Origin: Escherichia coli
GTDB lineage: Bacteria > Pseudomonadota > Gammaproteobacteria > Enterobacterales > Enterobacteriaceae
Direction: 5' to 3' (one strand)
Assembly (NCBI RefSeq): GCF_029227855.1
Contig: NZ_CP074356.1
DNA: 64,000 nucleotides
The notes below the pieces were generated by a model. That model saw only the letters and a list, made by a program, of their open reading frames with translations, made no database searches and was not told where the DNA came from. Positions within the stretch are counted from its first letter, which is position 1, and the number at the start of each line of letters is the position of its first letter. The position numbers and the translations under genes were made by a program. Shown in pieces: positions 5,769-55,514 of this stretch.

Positions 5769-6461
5769 CTAGTGATAACCACGCGCGGTCATAAAATCCG
5801 TAATCGCTTTTTCCGCATCAACCAGCACTTGTTCCAGCGGTTGATTGGCATCGATATCAACCAGTTGCGCGCCTCCAAAGGTTAACTGTGGCATTATGGC
5901 TATCTTCCTTTCCAGCGATTCTCTTTTGTGGTCAGGCTTACGCGCGCAGGCCACGTCCAGATCGACATTGAGTTTGATGACCAGATCGGGCTTATGGCTC
6001 GCCATCCAGTGAAACGCTTTACGTTCCTGGCTTGCCAGCCATGAGACAAAACGACCACCTTCAACGTTAGGTGGGAACACCGTACCATCGTAAGCACCAG
6101 GAATTTGGTCCTGAGGATAACGGTCGGTTAGAACAATTAACCCGCGACGACGACAGGCAAGCATATGACGAAAGCGCAGTAAGCGACGGGCGACAAACGC
6201 TGTAATTACCAGCGCCGGAACAGGGCCAGGCAATTTTTTTGCTGTTTTCACCTGATTTCGTTCAATTGTTTTATGTAAGGATTTTCCCATCAACGGTAAT
6301 TTTGTCACTGCACGACCGACATTTCCGGCCTGTTTTCCTAAATGAACTCTTTCGGCAGCACCATATTTTTCGACAACGGTAATGAGATGTTCACACACCG
6401 TTGACTTGCCTGAACCATCGCTACCAATAACGGCAATTAATGGAGGTGTTATTGACTGCAT
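5769..6461 (-). CDS. yghT: YghT, P-loop NTPase of unknown function (230 aa)
   Basis: Walker [14 protein letters not shown] near N-terminus; DRYPQ and ARKPDH motifs shared with YghS and YghR (paralogs). Confidence 0.85.
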
Positions 6462-6634
6462 GAATATATCCTTTAATTTAAATATCCATTAAAAATATTT
6501 ATTTGGTTAATGTGTTTTTATGAAAGCGTAATTCAGGTCAATGTCACAATTAACCATTGTCACAATAAGGTTGAACGGATATTCTGAGCACGGACCACGT
6601 AATATTCAATACATTATTTGCTGCCGGGTTTTTC
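6462..6634. promoter_or_regulatory. Divergent intergenic region yghT <-> yghS (probable promoters)
   Basis: AT-rich 170-bp spacer between divergently oriented starts; no sites mapped by eye. Confidence 0.3.
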
Positions 6635-7348
6635 GTGAATCAACGTAATATGTCAATAATTAATTCCACGCCAGTGCGTGTTATTGCCATTGTAGGATAT
6701 GATGGTTCAGGTAAATCGACCCTCACGGCAAGCCTGGTAAATGAACTGGCAGCAACAATGCCAACAGAACACATTTATCTCGGGCAATCGTCCGGGCGAA
6801 TTGGCGAATGGATTTCACAGCTCCCTGTTATTGGCGCACCTTTTGGGCGTTATTTGCGAAGTAAAGCGGCACATGTGCACGAAAAGCCCTTAACACCGCC
6901 TGGCAATATTACTGCGCTGGTTATCTATCTGCTTTCCTGCTGGCGGGCGTACAAGTTTCGCAAAATGTTGTGTAAAAGCCAGCAAGGCTATCTGCTCATC
7001 ACCGACCGCTACCCGCAGGTTGAAGTGCCGGGTTTTCGCTTTGATGGCCCGCAATTGGCAAAAACCACGGGCGGTAACGGTTGGATAAAAATGTTAAGGC
7101 AGCGCGAGCTGAAGCTGTACCAATGGATGGCGTCTTATTTGCCCGTATTGTTGATTCGTCTTGGCATTGATGAACAAACGGCGTTTGCGCGTAAACCTGA
7201 CCACCAACTGGCGGCGTTACAGGAAAAAATCGCCGTTACGCCGCAACTGACATTCAATGGCGCAAAGATCCTTGAACTGGATGGTCGGCAACCAGCCGAT
7301 GAAATTATGCAAGCGTCACTACGTGCAATTCACGCCGCGCTTCCCTGA
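6635..7348 (+). CDS. yghS: YghS, P-loop NTPase of unknown function (237 aa; start may be GTG 6635 or ATG 6650)
   Basis: Walker A IAIVGYDGSGKSTL; DRYPQ and ARKPDH motifs; paralog of YghR/YghT. Confidence 0.85.
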   Translation: MNQRNMSIINSTPVRVIAIVGYDGSGKSTLTASLVNELAATMPTEHIYLGQSSGRIGEWISQLPVIGAPFGRYLRSKAAHVHEKPLTPPGNITALVIYLLSCWRAYKFRKMLCKSQQGYLLITDRYPQVEVPGFRFDGPQLAKTTGGNGWIKMLRQRELKLYQWMASYLPVLLIRLGIDEQTAFARKPDHQLAALQEKIAVTPQLTFNGAKILELDGRQPADEIMQASLRAIHAALP

Positions 7349-7379
7349 TCACCAAAATGGATAGGGGATGATTTAACGA

Positions 7380-8138
7380 ATGGATGCACTACAAACACAA
7401 ACTGTTAATAGTACAACCGCGCCGCAGCCCAACTACATTCCGGGGCTGATTGCGGTGGTCGGGTGTGATGGCACCGGTAAATCCACACTGACCACCGACC
7501 TGGTGAAATCGCTGCAACAACACTGGCAAACCGAGCGGCGCTATCTGGGGCTGCTCTCCGGCGAAGACGGCGACAAAATCAAACGATTGCCGTTGGTTGG
7601 CGTCTGGCTCGAACGGCGACTGGCGGCCAAATCCTCGAAAACCCAAAGCATGAAAACCAAATCTCCAGCGCTATGGGCGGCGGTGATTATGTACTGCTTC
7701 TCGCTGCGAAGAATGGCGAATCTACGCAAGGTTCAGCGACTGGCGCAAAGTGGCGTTCTGGTGGTCAGCGATCGCTTCCCGCAGGCTGAAATTTCGGGCT
7801 TTTATTATGACGGACCGGGGATCGGCGTCGAACGTGCGACCGGGAAAATCAGCATGTTTCTGGCGCAGCGCGAACGGCGTTTATACCAACAAATGGCGCA
7901 ATACCGTCCTGAATTAATCATTCGTTTGGGGATTGATATTGATACTGCCATCTCCCGCAAGCCTGACCATGACTATGCCGAGCTGCAGGACAAAATCGGC
8001 GTCATGTCGACGATTGGCTATAACGGCTCAAAAATTCTTGAGATTGATTCCAGAGCGCCCTACAGCGAAGTGCTGGAACAGGCACAGAAGGCGGTTTCTC
8101 TGGTTGCCATCGTTTCTGACCGCCGAAGTTTAACTTAA
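7380..8138 (+). CDS. yghR: YghR, P-loop NTPase of unknown function (252 aa)
   Basis: Walker A IAVVGCDGTGKSTL; DRFPQ and SRKPDH motifs; paralog of YghS/YghT. Confidence 0.85.
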   Translation: MDALQTQTVNSTTAPQPNYIPGLIAVVGCDGTGKSTLTTDLVKSLQQHWQTERRYLGLLSGEDGDKIKRLPLVGVWLERRLAAKSSKTQSMKTKSPALWAAVIMYCFSLRRMANLRKVQRLAQSGVLVVSDRFPQAEISGFYYDGPGIGVERATGKISMFLAQRERRLYQQMAQYRPELIIRLGIDIDTAISRKPDHDYAELQDKIGVMSTIGYNGSKILEIDSRAPYSEVLEQAQKAVSLVAIVSDRRSLT

Positions 8139-8183
8139 GGCTGGCGGGATACTTTTTACTATCAACGATAAGGTCAGGCTGAA

Positions 8184-9533
8184 TTGGCGGGTTTTAACAT
8201 CAAACATTGGTTTGCAGATGGCGCGTTTCGCACCATTATTCGCAATAGCGCCTGGTTAGGCTCCAGTAATGTCGTGAGCGCTTTGCTGGGTCTGTTGGCG
8301 CTCTCGTGTGCCGGTAAAGGGATGACGCCCGCCATGTTTGGCGTACTGGTGATTGTGCAATCGTACGCCAAGTCGATCAGCGATTTTATTAAGTTTCAGA
8401 CATGGCAGTTGGTGGTGCAGTACGGAACGCCAGCCTTGACCAACAATAATCCGCAGCAATTTCGCAATGTCGTCTCATTTTCCTTCTCGTTGGATATCGT
8501 CAGCGGCGCGGTGGCGATTGTCGGCGGCATTGCCTTACTCCCTTTTCTTTCCCATTCATTAGGTCTGGATGACCAAAGCTTTTGGCTGGCAGCGCTGTAT
8601 TGCACGCTCATTCCTTCAATGGCTTCCTCCACGCCGACCGGCATTCTGCGTGCGGTAGATCGCTTCGACTTAATTGCTGTACAGCAGGCGACGAAACCTT
8701 TTCTGCGCGCAGCGGGGAGCGTCGTTGCCTGGTATTTTGACTTTGGTTTTGCGGGTTTTGTTATTGCCTGGTACGCCTCGAATCTTGTTGGCGGCACCAT
8801 GTACTGGTGGTTTGCCGCACGTGAATTACGCCGCAGAAATATCCATAACGCGTTCAAATTGAATCTGTTTGAGTCTGCCCGACACATCAAAGGCGCGTGG
8901 AGTTTTGTCTGGTCAACCAACATTGCCCATTCCATCTGGTCGGCGCGTAATTCGTGCAGCACAGTGTTGGTGGGGATCGTGTTAGGACCCGCTGCCGCCG
9001 GGTTATTTAAAATCGCCATGACATTCTTCGACGCCGCCGGAACGCCAGCGGGTTTACTGGGTAAAAGTTTTTACCCAGAGGTGATGCGTTTAGATCCGCG
9101 CACCACCAGACCGTGGTTGTTAGGCGTGAAGTCCGGTTTACTGGCGGGCGGAATCGGTATTCTGGTGGCGCTCGCGGTGTTGATCGTCGGCAAGCCGCTC
9201 ATTTCGCTGGTGTTTGGCGTTAAGTATCTCGAAGCGTATGACCTGATTCAGGTGATGCTGGGCGCAATTGTGATCTCGATGCTGGGCTTCCCTCAGGAGT
9301 CATTGCTATTGATGGCGGGAAAACAGCGCGCTTTTCTCGTGGCGCAAACCATCGCCTCAATCGGCTACATCGTATTGCTGTTCATGTTCTGTCATCTGTT
9401 TGGCGTGCTGGGGGCTGCATTTGCTTACTTCGGTGGGCAATGTCTGGATGTGGTGTTCTCGCTAATTCCGACCTTAAAGGCATTTTTTCAGCGCCATTCC
9501 TTGCTTTATAACTCAGCCGGAGAGAAATCCTGA
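8184..9533 (+). CDS. yghQ: YghQ, polytopic inner-membrane protein, MOP/Wzx-like putative flippase (449 aa as called from TTG start; first in-frame ATG is codon 47)
   Basis: Many hydrophobic segments throughout; N-terminus resembles polysaccharide-transporter family; stop overlaps downstream ATG (ATGA). Confidence 0.8.
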   Translation: MAGFNIKHWFADGAFRTIIRNSAWLGSSNVVSALLGLLALSCAGKGMTPAMFGVLVIVQSYAKSISDFIKFQTWQLVVQYGTPALTNNNPQQFRNVVSFSFSLDIVSGAVAIVGGIALLPFLSHSLGLDDQSFWLAALYCTLIPSMASSTPTGILRAVDRFDLIAVQQATKPFLRAAGSVVAWYFDFGFAGFVIAWYASNLVGGTMYWWFAARELRRRNIHNAFKLNLFESARHIKGAWSFVWSTNIAHSIWSARNSCSTVLVGIVLGPAAAGLFKIAMTFFDAAGTPAGLLGKSFYPEVMRLDPRTTRPWLLGVKSGLLAGGIGILVALAVLIVGKPLISLVFGVKYLEAYDLIQVMLGAIVISMLGFPQESLLLMAGKQRAFLVAQTIASIGYIVLLFMFCHLFGVLGAAFAYFGGQCLDVVFSLIPTLKAFFQRHSLLYNSAGEKS

Positions 9534-10357
9534 TGATGAGAAAATATTTCCCGCTTGAGGCGAGCGAGCGTCTATTTGTTGCGATTGAAGAAGATGATGT
9601 TGTTGATGCACAGGTCAGTTTGCCGCCGACTATCGCACTAAGTTGTACCACCGAAATCATCCATGATAATTACGCGTTATGCCTGCAATTCTGGCTCAAT
9701 GGCGTCAATCGCCAGGAGTTACTGCGTTTAATATGCAAACAGGCCAAAGGCGATGAGCTGACTGCTGATGAGCGCAAACAATTTAAATACATGCGAGCGC
9801 GCTACAAGCACCTGCGTTTTGCGCAACGGCTGTATTTAAAAAAGCATCAGGCCGGATTTTTATTCGGCAAAACGACCGTTTTTTTGGGGCGTTTTCAGGA
9901 CGGCTTTCGTAACGGTAAGAAAAATATTGTGTCGTATTACGGCAACCTGTTACGGGTTTATTTAAGCTCTCCGGTCTGGTCGTTGGTGAACTATTCATTA
10001 CGCCATAGCCAGTTAGAAAGCGTAAGCGGTTTTATTGCCTATCGGCAAAAGCAAATGCATACCCTGAAAGAGATAATTGCCAAATCGCGACTAACTGGCA
10101 GGGAATTTCATGATGTGCGAAAAATCATCAGCCAGCAGGTTTCTTATTACGACACCCTAAGATCGCTTGATCCTGAAAATAAAGAGGCGTTACAGATTTC
10201 CCGCTTCCTCGCCGCCATTAATGGCCTGATGGGGGATAAACACGACGACATGGTGGCGGATGATATGGAAAACCGCCAGTCGTATGATGCACCGATGGCG
10301 CTGGATAGCGATATTCGTCAGCGCTTAGAACTGCTGATTTCGCGTTTTCCGCTATAA
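9533..10357 (+). CDS. Hypothetical soluble protein (274 aa), translationally coupled to yghQ
   Basis: ATG overlaps yghQ stop; no transmembrane segments or signal peptide evident; basic/aromatic-rich helical-looking sequence; no domain recognised by eye. Confidence 0.6.
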   Translation: MMRKYFPLEASERLFVAIEEDDVVDAQVSLPPTIALSCTTEIIHDNYALCLQFWLNGVNRQELLRLICKQAKGDELTADERKQFKYMRARYKHLRFAQRLYLKKHQAGFLFGKTTVFLGRFQDGFRNGKKNIVSYYGNLLRVYLSSPVWSLVNYSLRHSQLESVSGFIAYRQKQMHTLKEIIAKSRLTGREFHDVRKIISQQVSYYDTLRSLDPENKEALQISRFLAAINGLMGDKHDDMVADDMENRQSYDAPMALDSDIRQRLELLISRFPL

Positions 10358-10365
10358 CCGGAGCA

Positions 10366-10929
10366 ATGATGTCATCTCGTTTGATTATTGCGCTGGTTAT
10401 CATGCTCTTAGCCCCGGGTGTGCAGGCGCACAATTTCGTCACTGGTAAAACGGTTACCCCTGTTTATATCCAGGAAGGCGGCGAGCTGCTTCTGAATAGC
10501 GAAGACGAAATTCACTACCAAAAGTGGAACAGCACACAGCTGGCGGGAAAAGTCCGCATTATTCAGTATATCGCCGGGCGTAAGTCGGCGAAGAAAAAGA
10601 ACTCACTGTTAATTAAAGCGGTTGAAGCGGCAAACTTTCCGCAGGATCGTTTTCAGCCCACCACCATTGTGAACACTGATGATGCCATCTTTGGTACCGG
10701 CTATTTTGTCGTTGGCAAAATCGAAAAAAATAAACGCCGCTATCCATGGGCGCAATTCGTTATTGACGGCAATGGACAGGGACGCGTTGCCTGGCACTTG
10801 CAGGAGCAGAGTTCAACCATTCTGGTGCTGAATAAAACCGGGCAAATTCAGTGGGCAAAGGACGGCAGCCTGACGCCGGAAGAGGTAGAACATGTCATTG
10901 CGCTGGCGCAGAAACTGATCAATGAATAA
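10366..10929 (+). CDS. Hypothetical exported (periplasmic) protein, 187 aa
   Basis: N-terminal signal peptide MMSSRLIIALVIMLLAPGVQA followed by hydrophilic mature domain; starts 8 nt after the previous stop. Confidence 0.6.
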   Translation: MMSSRLIIALVIMLLAPGVQAHNFVTGKTVTPVYIQEGGELLLNSEDEIHYQKWNSTQLAGKVRIIQYIAGRKSAKKKNSLLIKAVEAANFPQDRFQPTTIVNTDDAIFGTGYFVVGKIEKNKRRYPWAQFVIDGNGQGRVAWHLQEQSSTILVLNKTGQIQWAKDGSLTPEEVEHVIALAQKLINE

Positions 10930-10959
10930 AAAATTCAAAGGATTGAGGGCGTTAGTGAG

Positions 10960-12030
10960 ATGAAGCTGGTTGAACACTACATCATGCGTGGTACGCGCCG
11001 TCTGGTGCTGATTATCGTCGGTTTTCTGATCTTTATTTTCGCCAGCTACTCCGCACAGCGTTATCTGACCGAAGCGGCAAATGGGACATTAGCTCTTGAT
11101 GTTGTGCTGGATATTGTTTTCTACAAGGTGCTGATTGCACTGGAGATGTTGTTACCTGTTGGACTGTATGTGTCAGTTGGCGTGACGCTAGGGCAGATGT
11201 ATACCGACTCGGAAATTACCGCTATTTCTGCGGCGGGGGGCAGTCCGGGACGCTTGTACAAAGCCGTTCTTTATCTGGCGATACCGCTAAGTATTTTTGT
11301 CACCCTTCTGTCGATGTATGGTCGTCCGTGGGCTTATGCGCAGATTTATCAACTGGAGCAACAGTCACAGTCGGAGCTGGATGTTCGCCAGTTGCGGGCA
11401 AAGAAATTTAACACTAACGATAACGGACGAATGATCCTTTCGCAGACGGTTGATCAGGATAATAATCGCCTGACTGACGCGCTGATTTATACTTCTACTG
11501 CCAATCGAACCCGCATTTTCCGCGCCCGTTCGGTTGATGTGGTTGACCCATCACCTGAGAAACCGACCGTTATGTTGCATAACGGGACCGCCTATCTTCT
11601 CGATCATCAGGGGCGTGACGACAACGAACAGATCTACCGTAATCTGCAATTACATCTGAATCCGCTGGATCAAAGCCCTAACGTCAAACGCAAAGCAAAA
11701 TCGGTCACGGAGCTGGCGCGCTCCGCCTTTCCTGCCGATCATGCCGAACTGCAATGGCGACAAAGCCGTGGCCTGACAGCGTTGTTGATGGCGCTGCTGG
11801 CCATTTCATTAAGTCGGGTAAAACCGCGGCAAGGGCGATTTTCAACGTTATTGCCACTGACGTTGCTGTTTGTTGCCATTTTTTATGGCGGCGACGTCTG
11901 CCGTACGCTGGTGGCTAACGGCGCGATTCCCCTCATTCCTGGTTTGTGGTTAGTACCCGGACTCATGCTAATGGGCCTGCTGATGCTGGTCGCACGCGAC
12001 TTCTCTTTGCTGCAGAAATTTTCCCGATGA
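10960..12030 (+). CDS. LptF-like permease (YjgP/YjgQ family), 356 aa
   Basis: N-terminus MKLVEHYIMRGTRRLVLIIVGFLIFIF typical of LptF/LptG; hydrophobic N- and C-terminal segments flanking a large hydrophilic loop; ~360 aa; RBS upstream. Confidence 0.75.
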   Translation: MKLVEHYIMRGTRRLVLIIVGFLIFIFASYSAQRYLTEAANGTLALDVVLDIVFYKVLIALEMLLPVGLYVSVGVTLGQMYTDSEITAISAAGGSPGRLYKAVLYLAIPLSIFVTLLSMYGRPWAYAQIYQLEQQSQSELDVRQLRAKKFNTNDNGRMILSQTVDQDNNRLTDALIYTSTANRTRIFRARSVDVVDPSPEKPTVMLHNGTAYLLDHQGRDDNEQIYRNLQLHLNPLDQSPNVKRKAKSVTELARSAFPADHAELQWRQSRGLTALLMALLAISLSRVKPRQGRFSTLLPLTLLFVAIFYGGDVCRTLVANGAIPLIPGLWLVPGLMLMGLLMLVARDFSLLQKFSR

Positions 12031-13106
12031 ATGTTTTCAGTCGCTATTTAATCCGTCATCTCTTTCTCGGTTTTGCCGCCGCCGCAGGGCTATTGCTGCC
12101 GCTTTTTACTACCTTCAACCTGATTAACGAACTGGATGATGTCAGCCCGGGCGGTTATCGCTGGACTCAGGCGGTGCTGGTGGTGCTGATGACCTTACCG
12201 CGTACACTGGTCGAACTTTCGCCGTTTATCGCCTTATTGGGAGGGATTGTTGGCCTGGGGCAGTTATCGAAAAACAGTGAGCTTACCGCCATTCGCAGCA
12301 CTGGGTTTTCTATCTTCCGTATTGCACTGGTGGCGCTGGTTGCCGGGATATTGTGGACTGTTTCGTTAGGCGCGATAGATGAGTGGGTGGCGTCGCCATT
12401 GCAGCAACAGGCGCTGCAAATCAAATCGACTGCCACCGCGTTGGGGGAGGACGATGACATTACCGGCAATATGCTTTGGGCCAGGCGCGGTAATGAATTT
12501 GTGACGGTGAAATCGCTGAACGAGCAGGGCCAGCCTGTGGGCGTGGAGATATTTCATTATCGCGACGATCTCTCGCTCGAATCCTACATTTTTGCACGCA
12601 GTGCCTCCATTGAAGACGACAAAACATGGATCCTGCATGGTGTGAATCATAAAAAATGGTTGAATGGCAAAGAAACGCTGGAAACATCAGATAATCTTGC
12701 CTGGCAATCGGCCTTCACCAGTATGAATCTTGAAGAGTTATCGATGCCGGGAAATACTTTTTCTGTCCGTCAACTTAATCATTACATCCATTATTTGCAG
12801 GAAACTGGGCAACCCAGCAGCGAATACCGCCTTGCACTGTGGGAAAAACTGGGACAACCCATCCTGACCCTGGCGATGATTTTGCTGGCTGTGCCGTTTA
12901 CCTTTAGTGCCCCGCGTTCGCCAGGGATGGGTAGCCGTCTCGCTGTAGGCGTCATCGTTGGCTTACTCACCTGGATCAGCTATCAAATCATGGTCAATCT
13001 GGGGTTGCTATTTGCGTTGAGCGCACCTGTTACCGCGCTCGGTTTACCGGTAGCGTTTGTGCTGGTGGCGTTGAGCCTGGTGTATTGGTATGACAGACAA
13101 CATTAA
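12027..13106 (+). CDS. LptG-like permease (YjgP/YjgQ family), 359 aa
   Basis: Track ORF trimmed to ATG overlapping upstream stop (ATGA); MNVFSRYLIRHLFLGFAAAAGLLLPLF typical LptF/G N-terminus; same topology pattern as partner. Confidence 0.75.
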   Translation: MNVFSRYLIRHLFLGFAAAAGLLLPLFTTFNLINELDDVSPGGYRWTQAVLVVLMTLPRTLVELSPFIALLGGIVGLGQLSKNSELTAIRSTGFSIFRIALVALVAGILWTVSLGAIDEWVASPLQQQALQIKSTATALGEDDDITGNMLWARRGNEFVTVKSLNEQGQPVGVEIFHYRDDLSLESYIFARSASIEDDKTWILHGVNHKKWLNGKETLETSDNLAWQSAFTSMNLEELSMPGNTFSVRQLNHYIHYLQETGQPSSEYRLALWEKLGQPILTLAMILLAVPFTFSAPRSPGMGSRLAVGVIVGLLTWISYQIMVNLGLLFALSAPVTALGLPVAFVLVALSLVYWYDRQH

Positions 13107-13107
13107 A

Positions 13108-13136
13108 CCCGCCGTGGCGCAGCGCCACAGCGGGCT
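13108..13136. terminator. Palindromic stem-loop between convergent operons (probable bidirectional terminator)
   Basis: cccgccgtggcgc a gcgccacagcggg inverted repeat in the 34-bp gap between the LptG-like stop and the alpha-oxoamine synthase stop. Confidence 0.45.
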
Positions 13137-13140
13137 CACA

Positions 13141-14313
13141 TTACTGCTTCAGAGTAGCGAACGCTTGAATGATGGCATCAATTTGCTCACGACTGTGGGC
13201 AGCGTTTACGCTACAGCGCAGCAGCGTGATGCCTGCAGGCGCGGCAGGTGGCAGGATAAGATTCACATAAACGCCCAGCGAAATAAGCTCGCGCCAGATG
13301 CGTAAACCGTCCTCTTTCGAACCGATTATTACTGGCACTACCGGGCTAATATGTGAACTTAACTCGTAACCCAGTTTTTGCAGACCGTCATACAGATGGT
13401 TGGCGTTATCCATCAGCTTTTGCCGCAGCTCTGGTTGTGAGGCAATGGTTCTTAACGACGAGCGCACGGTCGCAATGCAGGACGGAGAAGGAGAGGCGGT
13501 AAAAATATACGGGCGGCTGCCGTAGCGCAGCACTTCCATCGCTTCCGAACCGACAGCAAAACCGCCAATCGAGGCCAGACTTTTACTGAAAGTACCAACG
13601 ATAATATCCACATCATCTTCAACGCCAACGGCTTCAGCCAGTCCGCGCCCCGTTGCGCCTAACACGCCAAACGAATGCGCTTCATCGACAATCAAATAAC
13701 CACCGAGACGACGTTTGATATCAACAATTTCCGCCAGCGGCGCAACGTCACCGAGCATACTGTAGATGCCTTCAACGATGATAATCGCCTCTTTTGCCCG
13801 TTCACCGAGGCGAACCATGCGCCGTTCCAGATCTTTAGCATCGTTATGGCGGAAACGAATAATTTCCGCGCCACCGAGAGAACAGGCGTCATAAATACTG
13901 GCGTGGCTGTCGGCATCCAGTAACACCACGGCGTTATGGTCGGCAAGTGCGCTGATGACGCCTAAATTAGCGGTATAACCGGTTGAAAAAACGATAGCGG
14001 TAGGGCGATTAAAAAACTCGGCGATCTCTTTCTCTAACGCCAGATGCGGCGCATAACTGCCGTTTGCCATACGAGAACCGGTGGTGCCGGTGCCTTGGGC
14101 CGCTAACGCTGCCTGACCTTCGGCGATGGCATCATGATTAAAGGTTAAACCGAGATAATTATTGGTCCCGGCCAGAATCACTTTTTTATTGCCGATCCGA
14201 CCTTCGGTGGCGGAATACACTTCATCAATACAGGTGCCAAACGGTGTTAACCCGTTGTCACTAAATTGCAGTCGCTCGCCAGCAAGGCGCGCATATTTAT
14301 CGTATAGCCCCAT
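13141..14313 (-). CDS. PLP-dependent alpha-oxoamine synthase, serine palmitoyltransferase-like (390 aa)
   Basis: Class-II aminotransferase fold signature with Schiff-base lysine in GTFSKSLASIGGF (the TFSKS variant is typical of SPT rather than BioF/KBL); Gly-rich loop TGTTGSRMANGS; start overlaps ACP stop (TAATG). Confidence 0.85.
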   Translation of the reverse strand: MGLYDKYARLAGERLQFSDNGLTPFGTCIDEVYSATEGRIGNKKVILAGTNNYLGLTFNHDAIAEGQAALAAQGTGTTGSRMANGSYAPHLALEKEIAEFFNRPTAIVFSTGYTANLGVISALADHNAVVLLDADSHASIYDACSLGGAEIIRFRHNDAKDLERRMVRLGERAKEAIIIVEGIYSMLGDVAPLAEIVDIKRRLGGYLIVDEAHSFGVLGATGRGLAEAVGVEDDVDIIVGTFSKSLASIGGFAVGSEAMEVLRYGSRPYIFTASPSPSCIATVRSSLRTIASQPELRQKLMDNANHLYDGLQKLGYELSSHISPVVPVIIGSKEDGLRIWRELISLGVYVNLILPPAAPAGITLLRCSVNAAHSREQIDAIIQAFATLKQ

Positions 14314-14561
14314 TATTTATTCTCCAGCCATGGAAGTAGTGTTTCCATTAATTGCGCAGGGGTTTTGACATCCAGCAGAATATTAATAGGAATGGAAATA
14401 TCGAATCTGTCTTCCAGCATCATTAAGAGATCCATCACTTTGATCGACTCCAGGCCAAGATCGTTGACGAGATCGCTGTCGGGCTTAATTTCCACACCGT
14501 TTTCGACCAAATCCTGTAAACAGGAAAGGATGTAATCCATTACTATTTCACGATTTACCAT
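14313..14561 (-). CDS. Acyl carrier protein (82 aa)
   Basis: Small acidic protein with phosphopantetheine-attachment motif DLGLESIKVMDL; located between reductase and alpha-oxoamine synthase. Confidence 0.8.
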   Translation of the reverse strand: MVNREIVMDYILSCLQDLVENGVEIKPDSDLVNDLGLESIKVMDLLMMLEDRFDISIPINILLDVKTPAQLMETLLPWLENK

Positions 14562-14592
14562 AGAAACGTTAACACACCTTTAAACAAGACAA

Positions 14593-15507
14593 TCAAAATA
14601 GCCCGTTGCGTAATGCGTGTTCCAGGCTAATCCCGGGAAACCAATTAATATCTTCAGAAATACGGTTATTACTTGCCGACCAGTCGGCGTGGGTTAATTC
14701 ACGAATTTTCGAGCGGGTCAGCATAGGTTCTTTACCTGCCAGGCGACTCAACGCGGTACTGATATCCGCAAGGCAGGTGAGTACCGGCAGAGGAATACCA
14801 ACCATTCGCACGGAACCACAACGGGCGTCGGCGGCAAGCTGTCGTACGTGTTGCCAGTCATAGCCGCCGGGGACGCCATCGCATAATTCATAGGTTTGCG
14901 TCTGTACAGTTTCGGCGCTTAACCACTGCCCCACGGCTTGCGCAAAATCGGTGATGTGCAGGAAAGAGAGTTGTGTATCTGGCGCACCAAGTCGTGGCAG
15001 CAGGCCGCGCAGCATCCAGTCAAACAGCGGTTTTAACTCTTTATCGCCGGGACCATACACGGCTGTCGGGCGAAAAACGCCCAGCGTAATTTCATCAGCC
15101 ATTGCAGTCAGCCGTTGTTCGGCGACGTGTTTGGAATTTGCGTACCAGGAGAGTTCGGGATGGCGCGCCGCCAGCGAAGAGATAAACAGAAAACGTTGGC
15201 AAAAGCCGCTCTCTTTTGCCGCTTGCATCAGTCGCAGGCTGCCGTCAACGTTACAGCGGGTAAAAATCTCTTCTTTGTGCCCGCGCACTTGCCCGGCGCA
15301 ATGGACCACCGCGCTGGCTCCGGCAACCAGTTCGCTAAGTGAATGAGTATCTTCCAGAGAACCGCGCACCCAGGTGAGATTATCATTGACGTGAGCGCGG
15401 GCAGTACGCGTCAATGCGCGAACGTGAAAGCCGCGGGCGAGCAGGTTATCGATAATATATTTACCGATAAACCCGGTAGCGCCCGTCACCGCGACAGTTT
15501 GATTCAT
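14593..15507 (-). CDS. NAD(P)-dependent epimerase/dehydratase-family (extended SDR) reductase, 304 aa
   Basis: N-terminal Rossmann motif VTGATGFIG; catalytic YANSK (YxxxK); start overlaps upstream stop (ATGA). Confidence 0.8.
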   Translation of the reverse strand: MNQTVAVTGATGFIGKYIIDNLLARGFHVRALTRTARAHVNDNLTWVRGSLEDTHSLSELVAGASAVVHCAGQVRGHKEEIFTRCNVDGSLRLMQAAKESGFCQRFLFISSLAARHPELSWYANSKHVAEQRLTAMADEITLGVFRPTAVYGPGDKELKPLFDWMLRGLLPRLGAPDTQLSFLHITDFAQAVGQWLSAETVQTQTYELCDGVPGGYDWQHVRQLAADARCGSVRMVGIPLPVLTCLADISTALSRLAGKEPMLTRSKIRELTHADWSASNNRISEDINWFPGISLEHALRNGLF

Positions 15508-17228
15508 GCCAGGGATTCCTGCACATGAAGGCTTGCAGCATAAGCCTTCTGATAACGTTTTTTCGCTTCCGCACGGGCAGGCTTGCCGGAGGACGTTCGG
15601 GGAATACTGTGGGGCGGCAACAGATCGATAGCCGCGGTCACGCCAAATTCGCTTTGGATCCGTGCTGCCAGCGCGTGGATAAGCTGCCCGCGACGTTCTT
15701 CATCGCTGATCCGACACTGGATCTGCAAAATGATTTTTTCCTGGGCGGTAACAAAAGCAATCGCATCGCCAGAATGAATTTCCGGTTCCTGTTCCGCAAT
15801 ATATTCAATATCCTGCGGCCAGATATTACGGCCACGAATAATAATCAGATCTTTAATGCGTCCGGTGACATACAGATAACCGTCCAGCAGATAACCGAGG
15901 TCGCCGGTGTCTAACCAGCCCGTCGCGGCAATCTCGTCTTGTGAAATCTGGTCGCCAAAGTAACCGCTCATCAGGCTAGGGCCGGAGATGCAAATATGGC
16001 CTACCACACGTTCCGCGACAGGTATACCTGCTTCATTGCGGATTTCAATGCCATGTTCCGGCAACGCTTTACCGCAGTTGACGAAAGTCGATACGGCGCG
16101 TGTTTCAGCATCCGGCGCGACGGCTTTGCCCTGATATTCGAGGATGTCGCGATCCACTTCGTTAACCACAACCCCGGAAGCTTCATCAGAGAAGCTGACA
16201 GCCAGCGCATTTTCTGCCAGTCCGTAGCACGGCATGAAAGTTTTATCGTCAAAGTTGACCTGACGGAAACATTCAGCGAATTGATGGAGTTGTTCTGCGG
16301 AGATGGGTTCTGCACCAATACCAGCGACGCGCCAGCAGGAAAGATCCAGTTCAGCGAGATCTTTTTCATTCACGCGGCGCTGGCACAATTCATAGCCAAA
16401 CGGCGGCGCAACGGAAACGGTGCCGCGATTTTTACTGATCAATTTAAGCCATTGCAGAGGACGCATGGCAAAATCCTGAGTGCGCAAATAATCTACTGAA
16501 AGCTGCGTGGCGACGGGGGTCAGGAGAAAGCCGACCAGTCCCATATCATGGTAGAAAGGCAGCCAGGAGACGCAGCGGTCGCCAGGGCGTAATTTAATGC
16601 CATCGTGGCTTATAGCACGTAGATTAGCCATCACTTCGCGATGGGTGATAATGACGCCACGGGGAAAACGGGTGCTGCCGGAGGTGTACTGGAGGTAGGC
16701 GATATCGTTCGGAACTGGATGCTGGAGTGCAACATCGGCTTCCGGTAATGCCTTAAACCAGGCGTGGCTTAAAACATGTAATTCGGGGTTGTTGTTATGC
16801 GTCGCGGCATTGACCAGCGGTAACCACTCATCACCAGTGATAATGGCTGCGGGCTGGCAACTTGTCAGTAAACCCTGCAGTTTGGCGCTCCAGGAATCCC
16901 GCTGACCGACGCCCATTGGAATCGCCAACGGGACGGCGACTAAGCCGGCATACTGGCAGGAAAAAAAAGCCTCTACGAACCCGCTACTGGTTTCGGCAAT
17001 CAGCGCCACGCGATCGCCTTTTTTCAGGTTCAGCGATAACAACCGCTTCGCACCAGCTTCGGCACGCGCTTTTAACGTCTGATATTCCAGTTGATCTTCA
17101 AGTTGGCAACGTCTGTCATAAAAATTCATTCCGGCGCTACTCAGAGCGGCGTAGTCCAAAGCATCAACCAGCGTTGGAAAATCGGCATAGCGCATAGGTA
17201 GGGAATGCGTAAAGATTTTATTAGACAT
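15504..17228 (-). CDS. Fatty acyl-AMP ligase / acyl-ACP synthetase-like adenylating enzyme (~574 aa; track ORF extends to TTG at 17255)
   Basis: AMP-binding core YTSGSTRFPRGV; WLPFYHDMGLVG motif and overall length resemble FAAL-type enzymes; first gene of the minus-strand operon. Start chosen at first ATG (MSNKIFTHSL). Confidence 0.8.
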   Translation of the reverse strand: MSNKIFTHSLPMRYADFPTLVDALDYAALSSAGMNFYDRRCQLEDQLEYQTLKARAEAGAKRLLSLNLKKGDRVALIAETSSGFVEAFFSCQYAGLVAVPLAIPMGVGQRDSWSAKLQGLLTSCQPAAIITGDEWLPLVNAATHNNNPELHVLSHAWFKALPEADVALQHPVPNDIAYLQYTSGSTRFPRGVIITHREVMANLRAISHDGIKLRPGDRCVSWLPFYHDMGLVGFLLTPVATQLSVDYLRTQDFAMRPLQWLKLISKNRGTVSVAPPFGYELCQRRVNEKDLAELDLSCWRVAGIGAEPISAEQLHQFAECFRQVNFDDKTFMPCYGLAENALAVSFSDEASGVVVNEVDRDILEYQGKAVAPDAETRAVSTFVNCGKALPEHGIEIRNEAGIPVAERVVGHICISGPSLMSGYFGDQISQDEIAATGWLDTGDLGYLLDGYLYVTGRIKDLIIIRGRNIWPQDIEYIAEQEPEIHSGDAIAFVTAQEKIILQIQCRISDEERRGQLIHALAARIQSEFGVTAAIDLLPPHSIPRTSSGKPARAEAKKRYQKAYAASLHVQESLA

Positions 17229-17599
17229 ATACACCACGAAAAAATTGGATATCAAAAATAAAATGACAATAATGCGGTGGATTATATAGGCATAAAAGAT
17301 AAATGAGATAATATTTTCATCAGTGTGAAAATGAACATTGATTTAAATAATGAGTTTGAGTTTTTTTGTTTTTATTGTGAATGATATTTAATTTATGAAT
17401 GTATTAAGAAGAAGCCTTGTCCGGTCGCCTTAAATCGACAAAAGGCATTGTGGCGCTTCTGTGTAGTCTCTGACCTTATCGTAATCATTAATAAATACTA
17501 TTTATTCGTCGTTTGTATTCATTGGGTTGATTATTAAGGTGCCGTTCGTTGCTGTTGCAACCTGTTTTTCACCGTTAATTATTTGTTACCCACAGAACT
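17229..17599. promoter_or_regulatory. AT-rich divergent control region between lipid operon (-) and yghO (+)
   Basis: ~370 bp strongly AT-rich non-coding DNA with A/T tracts; no ORF with coding character; expected site of promoters for both flanking units. Confidence 0.35.
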
Positions 17600-18742
17600 A
17601 TGGAATGCGATCTGCTGATGATTAAAATTGAAAAAGTAATTAATAAAAATGACCTTAAGGCATTTATCGCTTTTCCGTCATCACTTTATCCCGACGATCC
17701 AAACTGGATACCCCCTTTATTCATTGAACGCAACGAGCATTTGTCTGCGAAAAATCCGGGGACGGACCATATCATCTGGCAGGCGTGGGTGGCAAAAAAA
17801 GCGGGGCAGATAGTTGGGCGTATTACCGCGCAAATAGATACCTTGCACCGCGAGCGTTACGGTGAAGATACCGGTCATTTCGGCATGATTGACGCCATTG
17901 ATGATCCGCAGGTTTTTGCCGCGTTGTTTGGCGCAGCGGAAGCGTGGTTGAAGTCACAAGGTGCAAGTAAGATCAGCGGTCCTTTCAGCCTGAATATCAA
18001 TCAGGAAAGCGGATTACTGATTGAAGGTTTCGATACACCACCCTGTGCGATGATGCCGCACGGTAAACCGTGGTATGCCGCGCATATTGAACAATTGGGT
18101 TATCACAAAGGCATTGATTTACTAGCGTGGTGGATGCAGCGAACCGATCTCACTTTCTCTCCGGCGCTAAAAAAACTGATGGATCAGGTGCGTAAGAAGG
18201 TGACCATTCGCTGCATCAATCGCCAGCGGTTTGCCGAAGAGATGCAGATCCTGCGTGAGATTTTCAACTCTGGCTGGCAGCACAACTGGGGATTTGTGCC
18301 GTTTACCGAACATGAATTCGCGACTATGGGCGATCAACTTAAATATCTGGTGCCGGACGATATGATCTACATCGCTGAGATTGATTCTGCACCCTGCGCG
18401 TTTATTGTTGGCTTGCCAAACATCAACGAGGCGATTGCCGATCTGAACGGATCGCTCTTTCCCTTCGGCTGGGCAAAATTGCTGTGGCGTTTAAAAGTCA
18501 GCGGTGTGCGAACTGCGCGAGTACCGCTGATGGGCGTGCGGGACGAGTATCAGTTTAGCCGCATCGGCCCGGTGATTGCGCTGTTATTGATTGAAGCCTT
18601 ACGCGATCCGTTTGCCCGCCGGAAGATCGATGCGCTGGAGATGTCATGGATCCTCGAAACCAATACAGGCATGAATAACATGCTGGAACGCATTGGGGCG
18701 GAGCCGTACAAGCGTTACCGATTGTATGAAAAGCAGATTTGA
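17600..18742 (+). CDS. yghO: YghO-family protein, intact (380 aa); possible acyl-CoA N-acyltransferase-like fold
   Basis: Uninterrupted ORF, soluble; position matches yghO next to glcC. Fold assignment is tentative. Confidence 0.7.
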   Translation: MECDLLMIKIEKVINKNDLKAFIAFPSSLYPDDPNWIPPLFIERNEHLSAKNPGTDHIIWQAWVAKKAGQIVGRITAQIDTLHRERYGEDTGHFGMIDAIDDPQVFAALFGAAEAWLKSQGASKISGPFSLNINQESGLLIEGFDTPPCAMMPHGKPWYAAHIEQLGYHKGIDLLAWWMQRTDLTFSPALKKLMDQVRKKVTIRCINRQRFAEEMQILREIFNSGWQHNWGFVPFTEHEFATMGDQLKYLVPDDMIYIAEIDSAPCAFIVGLPNINEAIADLNGSLFPFGWAKLLWRLKVSGVRTARVPLMGVRDEYQFSRIGPVIALLLIEALRDPFARRKIDALEMSWILETNTGMNNMLERIGAEPYKRYRLYEKQI

Positions 18743-50220: not shown

Positions 50221-52179
50221 TTATCCAATATTGTTTTTATAGTCAATGGTTTTTTTTATTAAGTTATAAGAAGCGATAGGGTTTCGTTTAACGCTTTTGA
50301 TAAAGACAAACGCCAAAGCTGTTTTCTTATTCTCTTGAGATAACATGATATGATTGGAGTTTAATAGACCAATAGGAGATTCAATATTTTTAGTTTTAAA
50401 AATACTGTTGTGAGTAAAATATAAGTTACATTCTTTTTTTGCGAACTTTTCGAACCCCAAATCACTTAATAATATTATGTCTGAATAGTCTTCAGTATAT
50501 ACTAAATTTGGATTGATAAGGTTGTATTCTTTATTCGGGTATTTAGAAACTAAAGTGTCTAGCAATAATTTGTCTGAGACAATATCTATACAATCAAAAC
50601 AATCGGTGTTGTCTAAGAGTGTATATAATTTATGTTGATTTATGTCTTTATACCCTTTCGCCCAGATAAGTAATCTTTTTGATAATTTATCCTTTAGTCT
50701 ATTGTTTCCTGCTTTTACTCTACGATAAAGTAAATCAGAATTCTCTCTGAATCCAAGAGGGTCTAATATATAATCATTCGAATCAATTGGTGACTTGAAA
50801 CTATAAAGAATTGGTTTGTTTGCTTTTTGTCTTATTCTATATAGATCATTTATGTGCAAGCTTAATGATTCATCAAAAATAATAAGTTCTGGGTTTTCTT
50901 TTGAAATGATTTTCAAAATGTCATCTTGAGCGAGATTTTGCGGGAGAATATGTTCACAAAATTGACTTACTTCTGAACCATATCGACCTGAATAAATAAA
51001 GACAGGGATAATATTACTATCATTATATAAATTAAAATAGAACTTAATTGCATGCACAGTGGATGCAGCAATTAACACTTTTACAGGGGTTATCGGTAAT
51101 GAAATATCCTGTTCATAAATCTCGTATGGGATATAATCCCTTTTATCATGTTCTGATTTAAATGTTATTCCTCTATATATTTTTTTCTCTAATCCCGTAA
51201 TAAATCTTTCAACGTGTCGCAACCCTTTTAAAAAATCCTTTCTTAATATGTTACATGCTGTTTCAAAACAGCTTGGGTTTACTGGTTGATTAATAAACTC
51301 AATGATTTCTTTTGCGAAGGTTGATATATCCCCATAAGGAACAACCCTAATAATTTCAGGAGGGGCTATTTCTGAGTTTCCGCCAACATCCCAACAGACT
51401 ACAGGTGTATATGTCGATAAAGACTCCAAAATAGCCATTGAGCAGTTTTCAAATTTGCTTAGAGATATAGCTACCTTAGCTCGGGATAGAAAATTAAATT
51501 TTTCATTTCCCTCAATATGTTCAAGGAAAGAAACATTAGAATACTCTTTAGATAAAGTGATTTTTTTCTCTTGTTTTCCGACAATAAAAATACTTAGATC
51601 ATTAGGTAAATTTTTTATGAGTGGTTCAATAAATTCAATTCCCTTAAGGTTGTTAAATCTGCTGAAGAAAATTACATCTATGTCTTTTTCAATTACACTT
51701 TTAAGAAGGTCTTTTTTTAGTGTGATTGGATTTTTATATACATGTATATTTGTAATGTCTAAATCATCTTTAAGTAGTTCTAACATGCCGTAAGATGGAG
51801 AGGAGACGGCTTTGGCTTTATAAATCGCTCTGCATTCATCTGAAAAACGAGCCTCATCAGGCTCTTCATTGATGATTCTTTTATATAGATGAAAGGGGCA
51901 ATGTAATCTGATATGTATATTTGCATCTTTTGGGAATAAAAGAGTTGGAGATTGTGATTCTGCTGCTTCAATTATTGTAGTGTGGTTTATTGCTTTTTTA
52001 TTTAAATTTAGATACGTGAATTTTCTAAAGTCTGGCATCGACATATCGTAAGGCTTTACAAACTCTTTATATGGGAAATCATAAACTTCATTGACTGTTT
52101 TAATATAATTAGTCACACCATTGCTGAATTCTGGATTATAGATAAAGTGATTGATGGATATTCTTTCAAGAGATTTCAT
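50221..52179 (-). CDS. Capsule region-2 protein (652 aa), probable glycosyltransferase (GT-B/GT4-like N-terminal part)
   Basis: Segment ...AISLSKFENCSMAILESLSTYTPVVCWDVGGNSEI resembles the GT4 E-x7-E/nucleotide-sugar binding region; AT-rich; between kpsT and the 800-aa gene. Confidence 0.6.
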   Translation of the reverse strand: MKSLERISINHFIYNPEFSNGVTNYIKTVNEVYDFPYKEFVKPYDMSMPDFRKFTYLNLNKKAINHTTIIEAAESQSPTLLFPKDANIHIRLHCPFHLYKRIINEEPDEARFSDECRAIYKAKAVSSPSYGMLELLKDDLDITNIHVYKNPITLKKDLLKSVIEKDIDVIFFSRFNNLKGIEFIEPLIKNLPNDLSIFIVGKQEKKITLSKEYSNVSFLEHIEGNEKFNFLSRAKVAISLSKFENCSMAILESLSTYTPVVCWDVGGNSEIAPPEIIRVVPYGDISTFAKEIIEFINQPVNPSCFETACNILRKDFLKGLRHVERFITGLEKKIYRGITFKSEHDKRDYIPYEIYEQDISLPITPVKVLIAASTVHAIKFYFNLYNDSNIIPVFIYSGRYGSEVSQFCEHILPQNLAQDDILKIISKENPELIIFDESLSLHINDLYRIRQKANKPILYSFKSPIDSNDYILDPLGFRENSDLLYRRVKAGNNRLKDKLSKRLLIWAKGYKDINQHKLYTLLDNTDCFDCIDIVSDKLLLDTLVSKYPNKEYNLINPNLVYTEDYSDIILLSDLGFEKFAKKECNLYFTHNSIFKTKNIESPIGLLNSNHIMLSQENKKTALAFVFIKSVKRNPIASYNLIKKTIDYKNNIG

Positions 52180-52372
52180 AATTTCTTTGCTCCTAACTAT
52201 TTGGGGTTATTGAAAATTATTTTTTGTTTGTTTCCACCTAAGGTTTATTTAGGATGATTGTGTAACTAACTATGTCTTAATTTACGTTTGATAAAATCAT
52301 TATTGTGTTGATAAATGTGATTAAAATAATATCATTTAAATTAAGTGTTAAGGTGCGTCAATATTATCGGCA

Positions 52373-53838: not shown

Positions 53839-53865
53839 TTGAGATATAACCTTAATATATTTTGG

Positions 53866-55480: not shown

Positions 55481-55514
55481 AAATAATTTCCGTAATAGTC
55501 AACTATGAAATTGT

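Follow-up and report, generated by a model that had tools for sequence, protein, structure and literature searches.

What does a four-gene operon that combines a fatty acyl-AMP ligase (FAAL), a short-chain dehydrogenase/reductase (SDR), an acyl carrier protein (ACP) and an alpha-oxoamine synthase (AOS) make in Escherichia coli? The operon lies in the window analysed here, a stretch of 64,000 nucleotides from the hyb–gss–pitB–ygh–glc–sslE region of the E. coli chromosome, which matches E. coli LR-31 at 100%. We propose, with a probability of roughly 0.88, that aasR-cerR-acpR-spt and the divergent gene yghO constitute the dihydroceramide (sphingolipid core) pathway of E. coli. Names, annotation and a partial characterisation of the operon already exist in the literature and in RefSeq, where its genes are labelled fatty acyl-AMP ligase, NAD-dependent epimerase, ACP and "spt serine palmitoyltransferase". 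The main inferences of a first-pass annotation of this DNA agree with experiments that have been published for practically identical proteins; this reading is supported and was already known.

The operon and its divergent neighbour

The features of the core locus are as follows.

13104..13138, minus strand: probable terminator hairpin, directly 3' of the spt stop codon and overlapping the end of the convergent lptG2
13141..14313, minus strand: spt, serine palmitoyltransferase (SPT), 390 aa (NF047599; Schiff-base Lys244; BL21 ECD_02854)
14313..14561, minus strand: acpR, dedicated ACP, 82 aa (phosphopantetheine serine Ser39; BL21 ECD_02853)
14593..15507, minus strand: cerR (epi), extended SDR, NDUFA9-like putative 3-keto reductase, 304 aa (Pfam, synteny)
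15504..17228, minus strand: aasR, acyl-AcpR synthetase (EcFAAL), 574 aa (NF006624, 3PBK, BL21 ECD_02851)
17229..17599, no strand: divergent intergenic region aasR/yghO, AT-rich, presumed promoter/control region
17600..18742, plus strand: yghO (aca/bCerS homologue), putative ceramide synthase, 380 aa (tandem-GNAT N-acyltransferase)

All four open reading frames of the operon were recovered on the minus strand (17228..13141), and the five motifs quoted in the first-pass annotation were found in the proteins to which it had assigned them. It had also described the four genes as translationally coupled by overlapping stop and start codons. This is the case for FAAL/SDR (4 nt, ATGA) and ACP/AOS (1 nt, TAATG) but not for SDR/ACP, which a spacer of 31 nt (14592-14562) separates, so that two of the three junctions overlap. 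The hairpin downstream of spt has a 16-bp stem with 10 GC pairs and a free energy of -30.2 kcal/mol (z = -5.7 relative to shuffled sequences). Because the T tract that follows is short and broken, we only infer from the sequence that it is a probable terminator. On the other side, the aasR/yghO intergenic region has a GC content of 19-40%, against about 50% in the flanks. It is presumably a promoter and control region, and a promoter-pattern scan of the wider region gave nothing above chance.

The same locus was described in BL21(DE3) as ECD_02850-02854 (Padilla-Gómez et al. 2022, PMC9386255), where yghO is ECD_02850 (aca) and ECD_02851-02854 are aasR, epi/cerR, acpR and spt. Gene order is identical, and so are the flanks, with yghQ/lptFG at one end and yghO/glcC at the other; protein identity is 96.7-100%, and the differences are only allelic.

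Acyl activation and condensation with serine

AasR scores 870 bits with the curated FAAL model NF006624 (cut-off 600), is about 98% identical over 574 residues to EcFAAL (PDB 3PBK) and 97.6% identical to ECD_02851, and has the FAAL-specific insertion (aa 347-386). The ATG at 17228, also chosen in the first-pass annotation, gives 574 aa, whereas the longest reading frame opens with a TTG at 17255 and the BL21 RefSeq start is 12 codons further downstream. The enzyme had been called FAAL-type from YTSGSTRFPRGV (aa 181-192). The call holds on the model, the insertion and the structure; the motif does not serve as its marker, since it is the adenylation core motif common to all ANL-family adenylate-forming enzymes.

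EcFAAL loads EcACP, a stand-alone carrier, and rejects CoA (PMC8460268), and crystals of it were obtained with C12 and C14 adenylates. The FAAL and the sphingolipid work on this one protein appear not to have been cross-referenced: words beginning with "sphingo" are absent from the FAAL papers PMC8460268 and PMC11837247, as are "FAAL" and "acyl-AMP ligase" from the sphingolipid paper PMC9386255. The carrier, AcpR, is identical (100%) to ECD_02853 and has the DLGLES site at aa 34-39. ACP models match it below their cut-offs, which marks it as a divergent ACP. AcpR_Ec (ECD_02853) incorporates beta-alanine and carries phosphopantetheine, and AasR_Ec is unable to acylate the AcpR of Caulobacter (PMC9386255). 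In the first step of the pathway, as demonstrated for near-identical proteins, AasR would thus adenylate a free fatty acid and, being unable to use CoA, transfer the acyl chain to AcpR by way of its phosphopantetheine arm.

The AOS had been assigned to the serine palmitoyltransferases from the TFSKS form of its lysine motif, GTFSKSLASIGGF (aa 240-252, window positions 13558-13596). Model searches point the same way: the curated SPT model NF047599 gives 599 bits (cut-off 500), and the BioF, KBL, CqsA-type and ALAS models all stay below their cut-offs. Among SPT models, the beta-type passes, whereas the alpha-proteobacterial NCBIfam model does not (429 bits, cut-off 670). The closest solved structures are the SPTs of Sphingomonas paucimobilis and S. 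wittichii (PDB 2JG2, 2X8U; 375 bits), followed at a distance by cysteate acyltransferase (203), KBL (about 200), BioF (176) and CqsA (126). The E. coli enzyme shares with the Sphingomonas SPTs the GTFSKS motif and the His, Asp, His, Lys, Arg set (H137, D210, H213, K244 and R366, corresponding to H159, D231, H234, K265 and R390 of S. paucimobilis). It differs from them by being about 20 residues shorter at the N terminus and by having Leu354 in place of Arg378 in the RPPATP loop, likewise Leu in the orthologues of Serratia and of a distant metagenome-assembled genome (MAG). Arg378 is a contact for the carboxylate of serine; this clade of SPTs is evidently active despite the substitution.

The BL21 enzyme (ECD_02854, 99.5% identical) is active with serine (PMC9386255). 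Co-expression of AasR_Ec, AcpR_Ec and SPT_Ec yielded 3-oxo-sphinganine in vivo, and when an SPT_Ec extract was given L-[14C]serine, the label appeared in a product that ran like 3-oxo-sphinganine, with palmitoyl-AcpR, tested with the Caulobacter carrier, preferred to palmitoyl-CoA (PMC9386255). Together with the rejection of CoA by EcFAAL (PMC8460268), this bears out the earlier suggestion that acyl-ACP rather than acyl-CoA is the substrate. In the second step, SPT, a PLP enzyme with Lys244 as the Schiff-base residue, would hence condense acyl-AcpR with L-serine to 3-oxo-sphinganine and CO2, as its near-identical counterpart does.

Other identities of the AOS have to be weighed against this evidence. 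The model of 5-aminolevulinate synthase (ALAS) scores too low (218 bits, cut-off 339). We give almost no credence to a BioF or KBL paralogue acting in biotin or threonine metabolism. General family similarity (334 bits with the BioF model, 297 with that of KBL) and the database entries that still say 8-amino-7-oxononanoate synthase would suit it, but these scores fall short of the cut-offs (426 and 460) and, as the first-pass annotation had noted when naming a BioF-like enzyme beside biotin genes as the finding that would overturn it, no biotin genes lie nearby. E. coli also has bioF and kbl elsewhere. The enzyme itself yields 3-oxo-sphinganine (PMC9386255).

A product other than a sphingoid base, such as a CqsA/LqsA-type alpha-hydroxyketone signal precursor, capnine (a sulfonolipid precursor) made from cysteate, or another amino-ketone lipid, is very improbable. 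The AOS family is versatile, with cysteate acyltransferase and CqsA among the solved relatives; Leu occupies the Arg378 position in the substrate loop; and the E. coli product described so far was recognised by its co-migration on TLC (PMC9386255). These points are outweighed by the score of the CqsA-type model (221 bits, cut-off 428), by the distance of the CqsA and cysteate acyltransferase structures given above, by the incorporation of labelled serine and by the linkage of the AOS to a full ceramide gene set (cerR, yghO).

Proposed N-acylation and keto reduction

The first-pass annotation stopped at four genes, short of yghO and of the linked transport genes. We add yghO as the putative fifth, a ceramide synthase homologue according to sequence and model. 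Pfam and NCBIfam searches with YghO gave no match. Its AlphaFold2 model (pLDDT 95) matches tandem GNAT proteins in structure comparison, with 43% identity and a TM score of 0.96 to D5VLY1 of Caulobacter segnis, and YghO was named an orthologue of aca (CC_1154) in PMC9386255. The divergent yghO/operon synteny recurs in Serratia and in the distant MAG. By analogy with Caulobacter, YghO would place the second acyl chain on the amine in the third step.

Caulobacter crescentus offers a close parallel. CC_1165-CC_1162 have the identical aasR-cerR-acpR-spt order, with CC_1164 in the position of cerR, and share the dedicated ACP and acyl-ACP synthetase; the N-acyltransferase CC_1154 (cerS/bCerS) is homologous to YghO, and a flippase and additional LptF/LptG copies lie in the neighbourhood. 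The native lipid of Caulobacter is known, whereas the dihydroceramide of E. coli is a predicted one. Caulobacter also has head-group genes (CC_1152, 1153, 1158-1161), described as being of the DAG-kinase-type ceramide kinase, CDP-alcohol transferase and nucleotidyltransferase types. None of the E. coli cluster proteins screened resembled any of these described types; what the E. coli flank has instead is yghR/S/T, the 274-aa orphan and the YtfJ-family protein.

The SDR motifs noted earlier, GATGFIG (aa 9-15) and YANSK (aa 122-126), are both present in CerR, which matches the Pfam families Epimerase, NmrA and NAD_binding_10 and has NDUFA9-family proteins as its nearest solved relatives. From homology and synteny we infer that it is the 3-keto reductase of the pathway. 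In the fourth step, which may precede the third, this NDUFA9-like SDR would reduce the 3-keto group to give dihydroceramide. The order of reduction and N-acylation is disputed even in Caulobacter (PMC11087976). The first-pass annotation had the SDR reduce the 3-keto amine, which corresponds to a eukaryote-like order: free 3-oxo-sphinganine would be reduced to sphinganine in the cytoplasm before YghO N-acylates it. We regard this order as the less probable one. According to PMC9386255 and PMC11324152, Olea-Ozuna et al. 2021 put it forward for Caulobacter, and cerR sits between aasR and acpR. Cytoplasmic reduction would also fit a protein that has no visible signal peptide (the Rossmann motif begins at residue 9) and is translationally coupled to a cytoplasmic ligase. 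On the other hand, the Caulobacter CerR, likewise NDUFA9-like, behaves as a periplasmic, inner-membrane-associated protein, and deletion of cerR leads to the accumulation of oxidised ceramide (PMC11087976), which favours acylation first. By this analogy, the E. coli SDR may act on 3-oxo-ceramide, already N-acylated, and not on the free 3-keto amine.

Distribution, selection and the co-inherited flank

The strains for which PMC9386255 names the locus are all E. coli B strains (BL21(DE3), ETEC B7A). We found the complete four-gene operon in 4059 of 5426 complete E. coli genomes (about 75%), and in Serratia. Nucleotide identity of the operon genes is 95-100% across thousands of genomes, and comparison of the window with BL21 gives dN/dS values of 0.015-0.14 for those genes of the operon and yghO that could be aligned (four genes; aasR, with a 3-nt length difference, is left out), so that the four reading frames are real genes rather than chance ones. 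In Serratia the five-gene cluster has the same divergent layout and the whole island 60-82% protein identity; in the distant MAG the layout is again the same, at 35-53%.

Is the pathway used in nature? The literature searched contains no report of a native sphingolipid of E. coli, and the operon appears silent in BL21 under standard laboratory growth: empty-vector controls of BL21(DE3) lacked 3-oxo-sphinganine although the strain has the cluster (PMC9386255). The cluster could then be a silent or decaying remnant, which works when over-expressed and yields nothing in nature. The very AT-rich upstream region would suit silencing, about a quarter of complete genomes are without the full operon, and K-12-type strains have lost the cluster without obvious harm, an IS5 element replacing the operon and part of the flank. 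We nevertheless consider this unlikely, because genes intact in 4059 genomes, with low dN/dS and an island kept in Serratia, look like genes under selection; close YghO homologues also occur in many Enterobacterales genera.

The flank carries the following genes, candidates for transport among them.

5769-6461, minus strand: yghT, P-loop protein
6635-7348, plus strand: yghS, P-loop protein
7380-8138, plus strand: yghR, P-loop protein
8184..9533, plus strand: full-length yghQ, MOP-family flippase-like membrane protein, 449 aa (weak MOP flippase match)
9533-10357, plus strand: orphan 274-aa protein, kept beside the cluster in Serratia
10366-10929, plus strand: YtfJ-family protein (TIGR01626, 215 bits), with an N-terminal hydrophobic, signal-peptide-like segment
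10960-12030, plus strand: lptF2 (TIGR04407, 320 bits, above cut-off)
12027-13106, plus strand: lptG2 (TIGR04408, 305 bits, above cut-off), convergent on spt

This co-inherited flank (YghQ, the LptF/LptG paralogues, YghR/S/T) belongs with the operon. LptF2 and LptG2 are second copies of the LPS-exporter permeases, also found with the Caulobacter ceramide cluster (PMC11324152), and by association they are a candidate sphingolipid exporter. YghQ, tied to the pathway as a candidate by the same reasoning, has at least seven hydrophobic segments, and its Serratia orthologue matches Pfam Polysacc_synt; in a K-12-type strain the gene is shortened and followed by an IS5 element. Speculatively, YghQ and LptF2/LptG2 might carry the lipid towards the outer membrane in a fifth step. 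The 274-aa orphan had no Pfam match. YghR, YghS and YghT, also candidates by association, are three paralogues with the Walker A motif GxDGxGKST and weak similarity to dTMP kinases; in Serratia, too, all three lie beside it, with about 69-70% identity to the E. coli proteins.

Operon layout and the identity of the oxoamine synthase

The operon is already known: its four genes carry names in RefSeq (fatty acyl-AMP ligase; NAD-dependent epimerase/dehydratase family protein; acyl carrier protein; "spt: serine palmitoyltransferase"), assays exist for three of the four proteins and a crystal structure for one. As a discovery, it adds little. Its broader meaning is that K-12 is an atypical E. coli: in about three quarters of the complete genomes the ceramide pathway is intact and under purifying selection, with a second LptF/LptG pair beside it, and this pathway has been lost from K-12-type strains. 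In BL21(DE3), Padilla-Gómez et al. 2022 (PMC9386255) named the genes aasR (ECD_02851), epi (ECD_02852), acpR (ECD_02853), spt (ECD_02854) and, for yghO/ECD_02850, aca. The corresponding features of the window are as follows.

17228..15504, minus strand: aasR, adenylate-forming enzyme (ligase), 574 aa, ORF from the ATG preferred by the first-pass annotation
15507..14593, minus strand: short-chain dehydrogenase/reductase (SDR), 304 aa, ORF
14561..14313, minus strand: acyl carrier protein (ACP, AcpR), 82 aa, ORF
14313..13141, minus strand: alpha-oxoamine synthase (AOS), 390 aa, ORF
17600..18742, strand opposite to the operon: divergent gene yghO, 380 aa, ORF

The four minus-strand ORFs that the first-pass annotation had read from the sequence alone were borne out by their positions (17228..13141), and its five quoted motifs all lie where it had placed them. 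The translational coupling that it claimed for all four genes holds at the ligase/SDR junction (ATGA) and at the ACP/AOS junction (TAATG), but the stop of the SDR and the start of the ACP are separated by a gap of 31 nt. The ligase start has been annotated in different ways. The longest ORF begins at TTG 17255 (583 aa), RefSeq uses the ATG at 17228 in strain LR-31 (574 aa) and, in BL21, a later ATG lying 12 codons inside it (562 aa). The alignment with the PDB 3PBK construct begins at the residue encoded by ATG 17228. A scan for promoter and terminator patterns was overall at chance level, its sole standout being a very stable hairpin (13104-13138, -30.2 kcal/mol, z = -5.7) that follows the stop codon of the AOS gene and overlaps the end of a convergent gene. 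A search of 6-20 kb against Rfam returned no RNA family.

The AOS had been proposed to be a serine palmitoyltransferase (SPT), and several lines of evidence agree. It passes the curated SPT model NF047599 (599 bits, cut-off 500), while the models of the other enzymes of the family all score below their cut-offs: 334 of 426 bits for BioF, 297 of 460 for KBL, 218 of 339 for ALAS and 221 of 428 for the CqsA type. Its nearest solved structures are the Sphingomonas SPTs (375 bits), well ahead of KBL (about 200), BioF (176) and CqsA (126). In the alignment, H159, D231, H234, K265 and R390 of the Sphingomonas paucimobilis enzyme correspond to H137, D210, H213, K244 and R366, i.e., the His/Asp/His set that binds PLP, the Schiff-base lysine (K244) and the catalytic arginine common to the whole family. 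One residue differs. Arg378 of Sphingomonas, in the RPPATP loop, contacts the carboxylate of serine, and its counterpart here is Leu354 (LPPAAP, window 13252-13254). The orthologues from Serratia and from a distant metagenome-assembled genome (MAG) also have Leu at this position, which makes it a trait of the clade. Since the BL21 enzyme is active with serine, Arg378 does not define the clade. The BL21 protein, 99.5% identical to the one in the window, makes 3-oxo-sphinganine from serine and a long-chain acyl thioester (PMC9386255).

Acyl transfer, condensation and probable conditional expression

How does the acyl chain reach the SPT? The ligase passes the fatty acyl-AMP ligase (FAAL) model NF006624 (870 bits, cut-off 600) and is about 98% identical to PDB 3PBK. 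The FAAL-specific insertion between its N- and C-terminal domains (aa 347-386) aligns with 3PBK without gaps and with a single substitution (D373G). The crystallized protein, EcFAAL, moves fatty acids onto an E. coli holo-ACP, which may differ from AcpR, and rejects CoA (Patil et al. 2021, PMC8460268); crystals with C12 and C14 adenylates have been described (PMC11837247). The carrier AcpR (82 aa) has a DLGLES motif with the phosphopantetheine serine at position 39, is encoded directly upstream of spt, and its stop codon overlaps the spt start. It matches ACP models, always under their cut-offs, consistent with a divergent and specialized carrier. As a side remark, the papers on EcFAAL and 3PBK (PMC8460268, PMC11837247) contain no word that begins with "sphingo", and PMC9386255 contains neither "FAAL" nor "acyl-AMP ligase", even though they deal with the same protein (15504-17228).

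The identities between the BL21 proteins and those of the window are 99.5% (SPT), 100% (AcpR), 96.7% (SDR), 97.6% (ligase) and 99.7% (YghO). The E. coli AcpR is labelled by beta-alanine, and the cognate ligase acylates it and not the Caulobacter AcpR (PMC9386255). Extracts with the E. coli SPT, given L-[14C]serine, use palmitoyl-AcpR (with the Caulobacter carrier) far better than palmitoyl-CoA, and the co-expression of ligase, AcpR and SPT yields a lipid migrating like 3-oxo-sphinganine (PMC9386255). The first two steps of the proposed pathway, which have been demonstrated with near-identical proteins, are the conversion of a fatty acid to acyl-AMP and then to acyl-AcpR by the ligase and the carrier, and the condensation of acyl-AcpR with serine to 3-oxo-sphinganine by the SPT. 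Caulobacter genetics suggests two further steps: the N-acylation of the sphingoid amine by YghO and the reduction of the 3-keto group, either of an oxidized ceramide or of 3-oxo-sphinganine, by the SDR, in an order that is disputed.

BL21 cells with empty vectors gave no 3-oxo-sphinganine, though the strain has the cluster (PMC9386255), and the literature searched yielded no record of a sphingolipid native to E. coli. Most likely, the pathway is expressed conditionally in nature. The 371 bp between the ligase gene and yghO (17229-17599) have a GC content of 19-40%, compared with about 50% for the locus. One may speculate that such a low GC content could suit silencing by nucleoid proteins, and this speculative idea would fit the absence of the product in laboratory cultures of BL21.

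YghO and the proposed final steps

The interpretation of the first-pass annotation, in which an acyl-ACP is condensed by an SPT-like enzyme, is supported overall; it overlooked the fifth gene, yghO, and the substrate of the SDR is uncertain. Sequence searches with YghO in Pfam, NCBIfam and PDB gave no match, so we turned to structure prediction. The AlphaFold2 model, built with 44 homologues, has a pLDDT of 95 and a pTM of 0.91. Its matches in the PDB are tandem GNAT acyltransferases (E about 1e-15), and those in AFDB50 are full-length homologues, including D5VLY1 of Caulobacter segnis (43% identity, TM 0.96). The family is large, with 6516 representative clusters at E ≤ 0.001. PMC9386255 treats YghO as orthologous to CC_1154 (bCerS), the N-acyltransferase of Caulobacter, and the genomic context supports this published orthology, since the divergent arrangement recurs. 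In Serratia liquefaciens, yghO is divergent from the same ligase-SDR-ACP-AOS series (YghO 82%, proteins 69-82% identical), and the distant MAG has the same layout (YghO 41%, SPT 53% identical). A YghO homologue with 36% identity has an aminotransferase-class gene two genes away; gene context could be read on two of the four contigs with distant homologues, the other two being too short. These data support YghO being a GNAT-fold homologue of CC_1154 (through the comparison with C. segnis D5VLY1 and the orthology given in PMC9386255) that is genomically linked to spt. We found no functional study of yghO or yghQRST in the literature searched.

The SDR, the candidate CerR (bacterial ceramide reductase), has the motifs expected of its class, GATGFIG (aa 9-15, the GxxGxxG NAD site) and YANSK (aa 122-126, the YxxxK pair). 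It matches the Pfam families Epimerase and NmrA, as an extended SDR, and its top solved matches are complex I subunits of the NDUFA9 type. In E. coli, Serratia and the distant MAG, its gene follows aasR and precedes acpR, and CC_1164 occupies the same slot in Caulobacter (PMC9386255). When would it act? According to PMC9386255 and PMC11324152, Olea-Ozuna et al. proposed that reduction comes first in Caulobacter. The Klein laboratory found that a Caulobacter cerR mutant accumulates oxidized ceramide and that CerR is periplasmic (PMC11087976), which argues for acylation before reduction and against the reverse order. In the E. coli SDR, however, no signal peptide can be recognized (the Rossmann motif begins at residue 9), and the protein is translationally coupled to the cytoplasmic ligase. 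For these reasons we keep a minority share, a little under a third, on reduction first, and regard acylation before reduction as the preferred order.

Flanking genes, distribution and loss in K-12

The ceramide genes lie within the following gene order: hybC-G, yghU, gss, pitB, yghT, yghS, yghR, full-length yghQ, a hypothetical gene, a YtfJ-family gene, the lptF and lptG paralogues, the four genes, yghO, glcC-A and sslE. The flank of interest comprises the following.

5769-13106: conserved flank, apparently inherited with the ceramide genes, encoding YghT/S/R, YghQ, a 274-aa orphan, a YtfJ-family protein and an additional LptF and LptG
Within it, plus strand: convergent operon of a MOP-flippase-like full-length YghQ, the 274-aa orphan, the YtfJ-family protein and the LptF and LptG paralogues

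The LptF and LptG paralogues pass curated models, the YtfJ-family protein begins with a hydrophobic segment resembling a signal peptide, and the 274-aa neighbour has neither a Pfam nor a family match. YghR, YghS and YghT are three paralogous P-loop proteins whose genes adjoin the cluster in E. coli and likewise in Serratia. In the latter, the yghT/S/R, yghQ and 274-aa genes also adjoin the operon, and the contig window ends short of any LptF/LptG or YtfJ position. The flank appears to be inherited together with the ceramide genes. In Caulobacter, too, the sphingolipid cluster encodes LptC2/F2/G2 and a flippase, which have been proposed to bring sphingolipids to the outer membrane (PMC11324152). 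None of the cluster proteins screened looks like the kinds of enzyme ascribed to the head-group genes of Caulobacter. Homology of YghR/S/T with CpgB, the Caulobacter ceramide kinase, was considered and dropped, as the latter has a DAG-kinase-type (LCB5) domain and the former are P-loop proteins.

Across E. coli chromosomes, matches to the 4.7-kb segment have 95-100% identity (100% in LR-31), and the segment is present in 4059 of 5426 complete E. coli genomes (about 75%), counting those where a single place covers at least 80% of it. The dN/dS values between the window and BL21 range from 0.015 to 0.14, leaving out aasR, whose alleles differ by 3 nt in length. Homologues of YghO with about 80% identity occur in Serratia, Citrobacter amalonaticus, Pluralibacter, Pantoea, Erwinia, Kosakonia, Mangrovibacter and Sodalis. 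The intact genes in most genomes, the low dN/dS and the spread across genera all argue against decay. In the K-12-type strain CAR, an IS5 element (7952-8932 of its locus, L002) lies between a truncated yghQ and yghO. The deletion corresponds to about 9250-17540 of the window, from the middle of yghQ to just upstream of yghO, and with IS5 in place of that stretch the entire operon and the LptF2/G2 pair are missing from CAR, which has a truncated yghQ.

These observations allow a broader and tentative proposal, to which we give roughly one chance in five: most natural E. coli and their relatives, e.g., Serratia, may make an as yet undetected ceramide-based outer-membrane lipid under non-laboratory conditions, with a head group other than the ceramide phosphoglycerate of Caulobacter. 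It would be built and exported by YghR/S/T, the 274-aa orphan, the YtfJ-family protein, YghQ and LptF2/LptG2, and K-12 would lack a whole class of membrane lipids through an IS5-associated deletion. In Caulobacter, sphingolipids influence the stability of the outer membrane, the sensitivity to polymyxin and detergents, and virulence (PMC11324152). By these effects, a native E. coli lipid could matter for a gut commensal and pathogen.

Elsewhere in the window, a group 2 (kps) capsule locus has its serotype-specific region 2 at about 44000-56000 (GC about 30%), which is ordinary. This block encodes glycosyltransferases as well as a Kdo transferase, has a frameshifted IS1 copy on either side, and adjoins sslE and the gsp genes for type II secretion.
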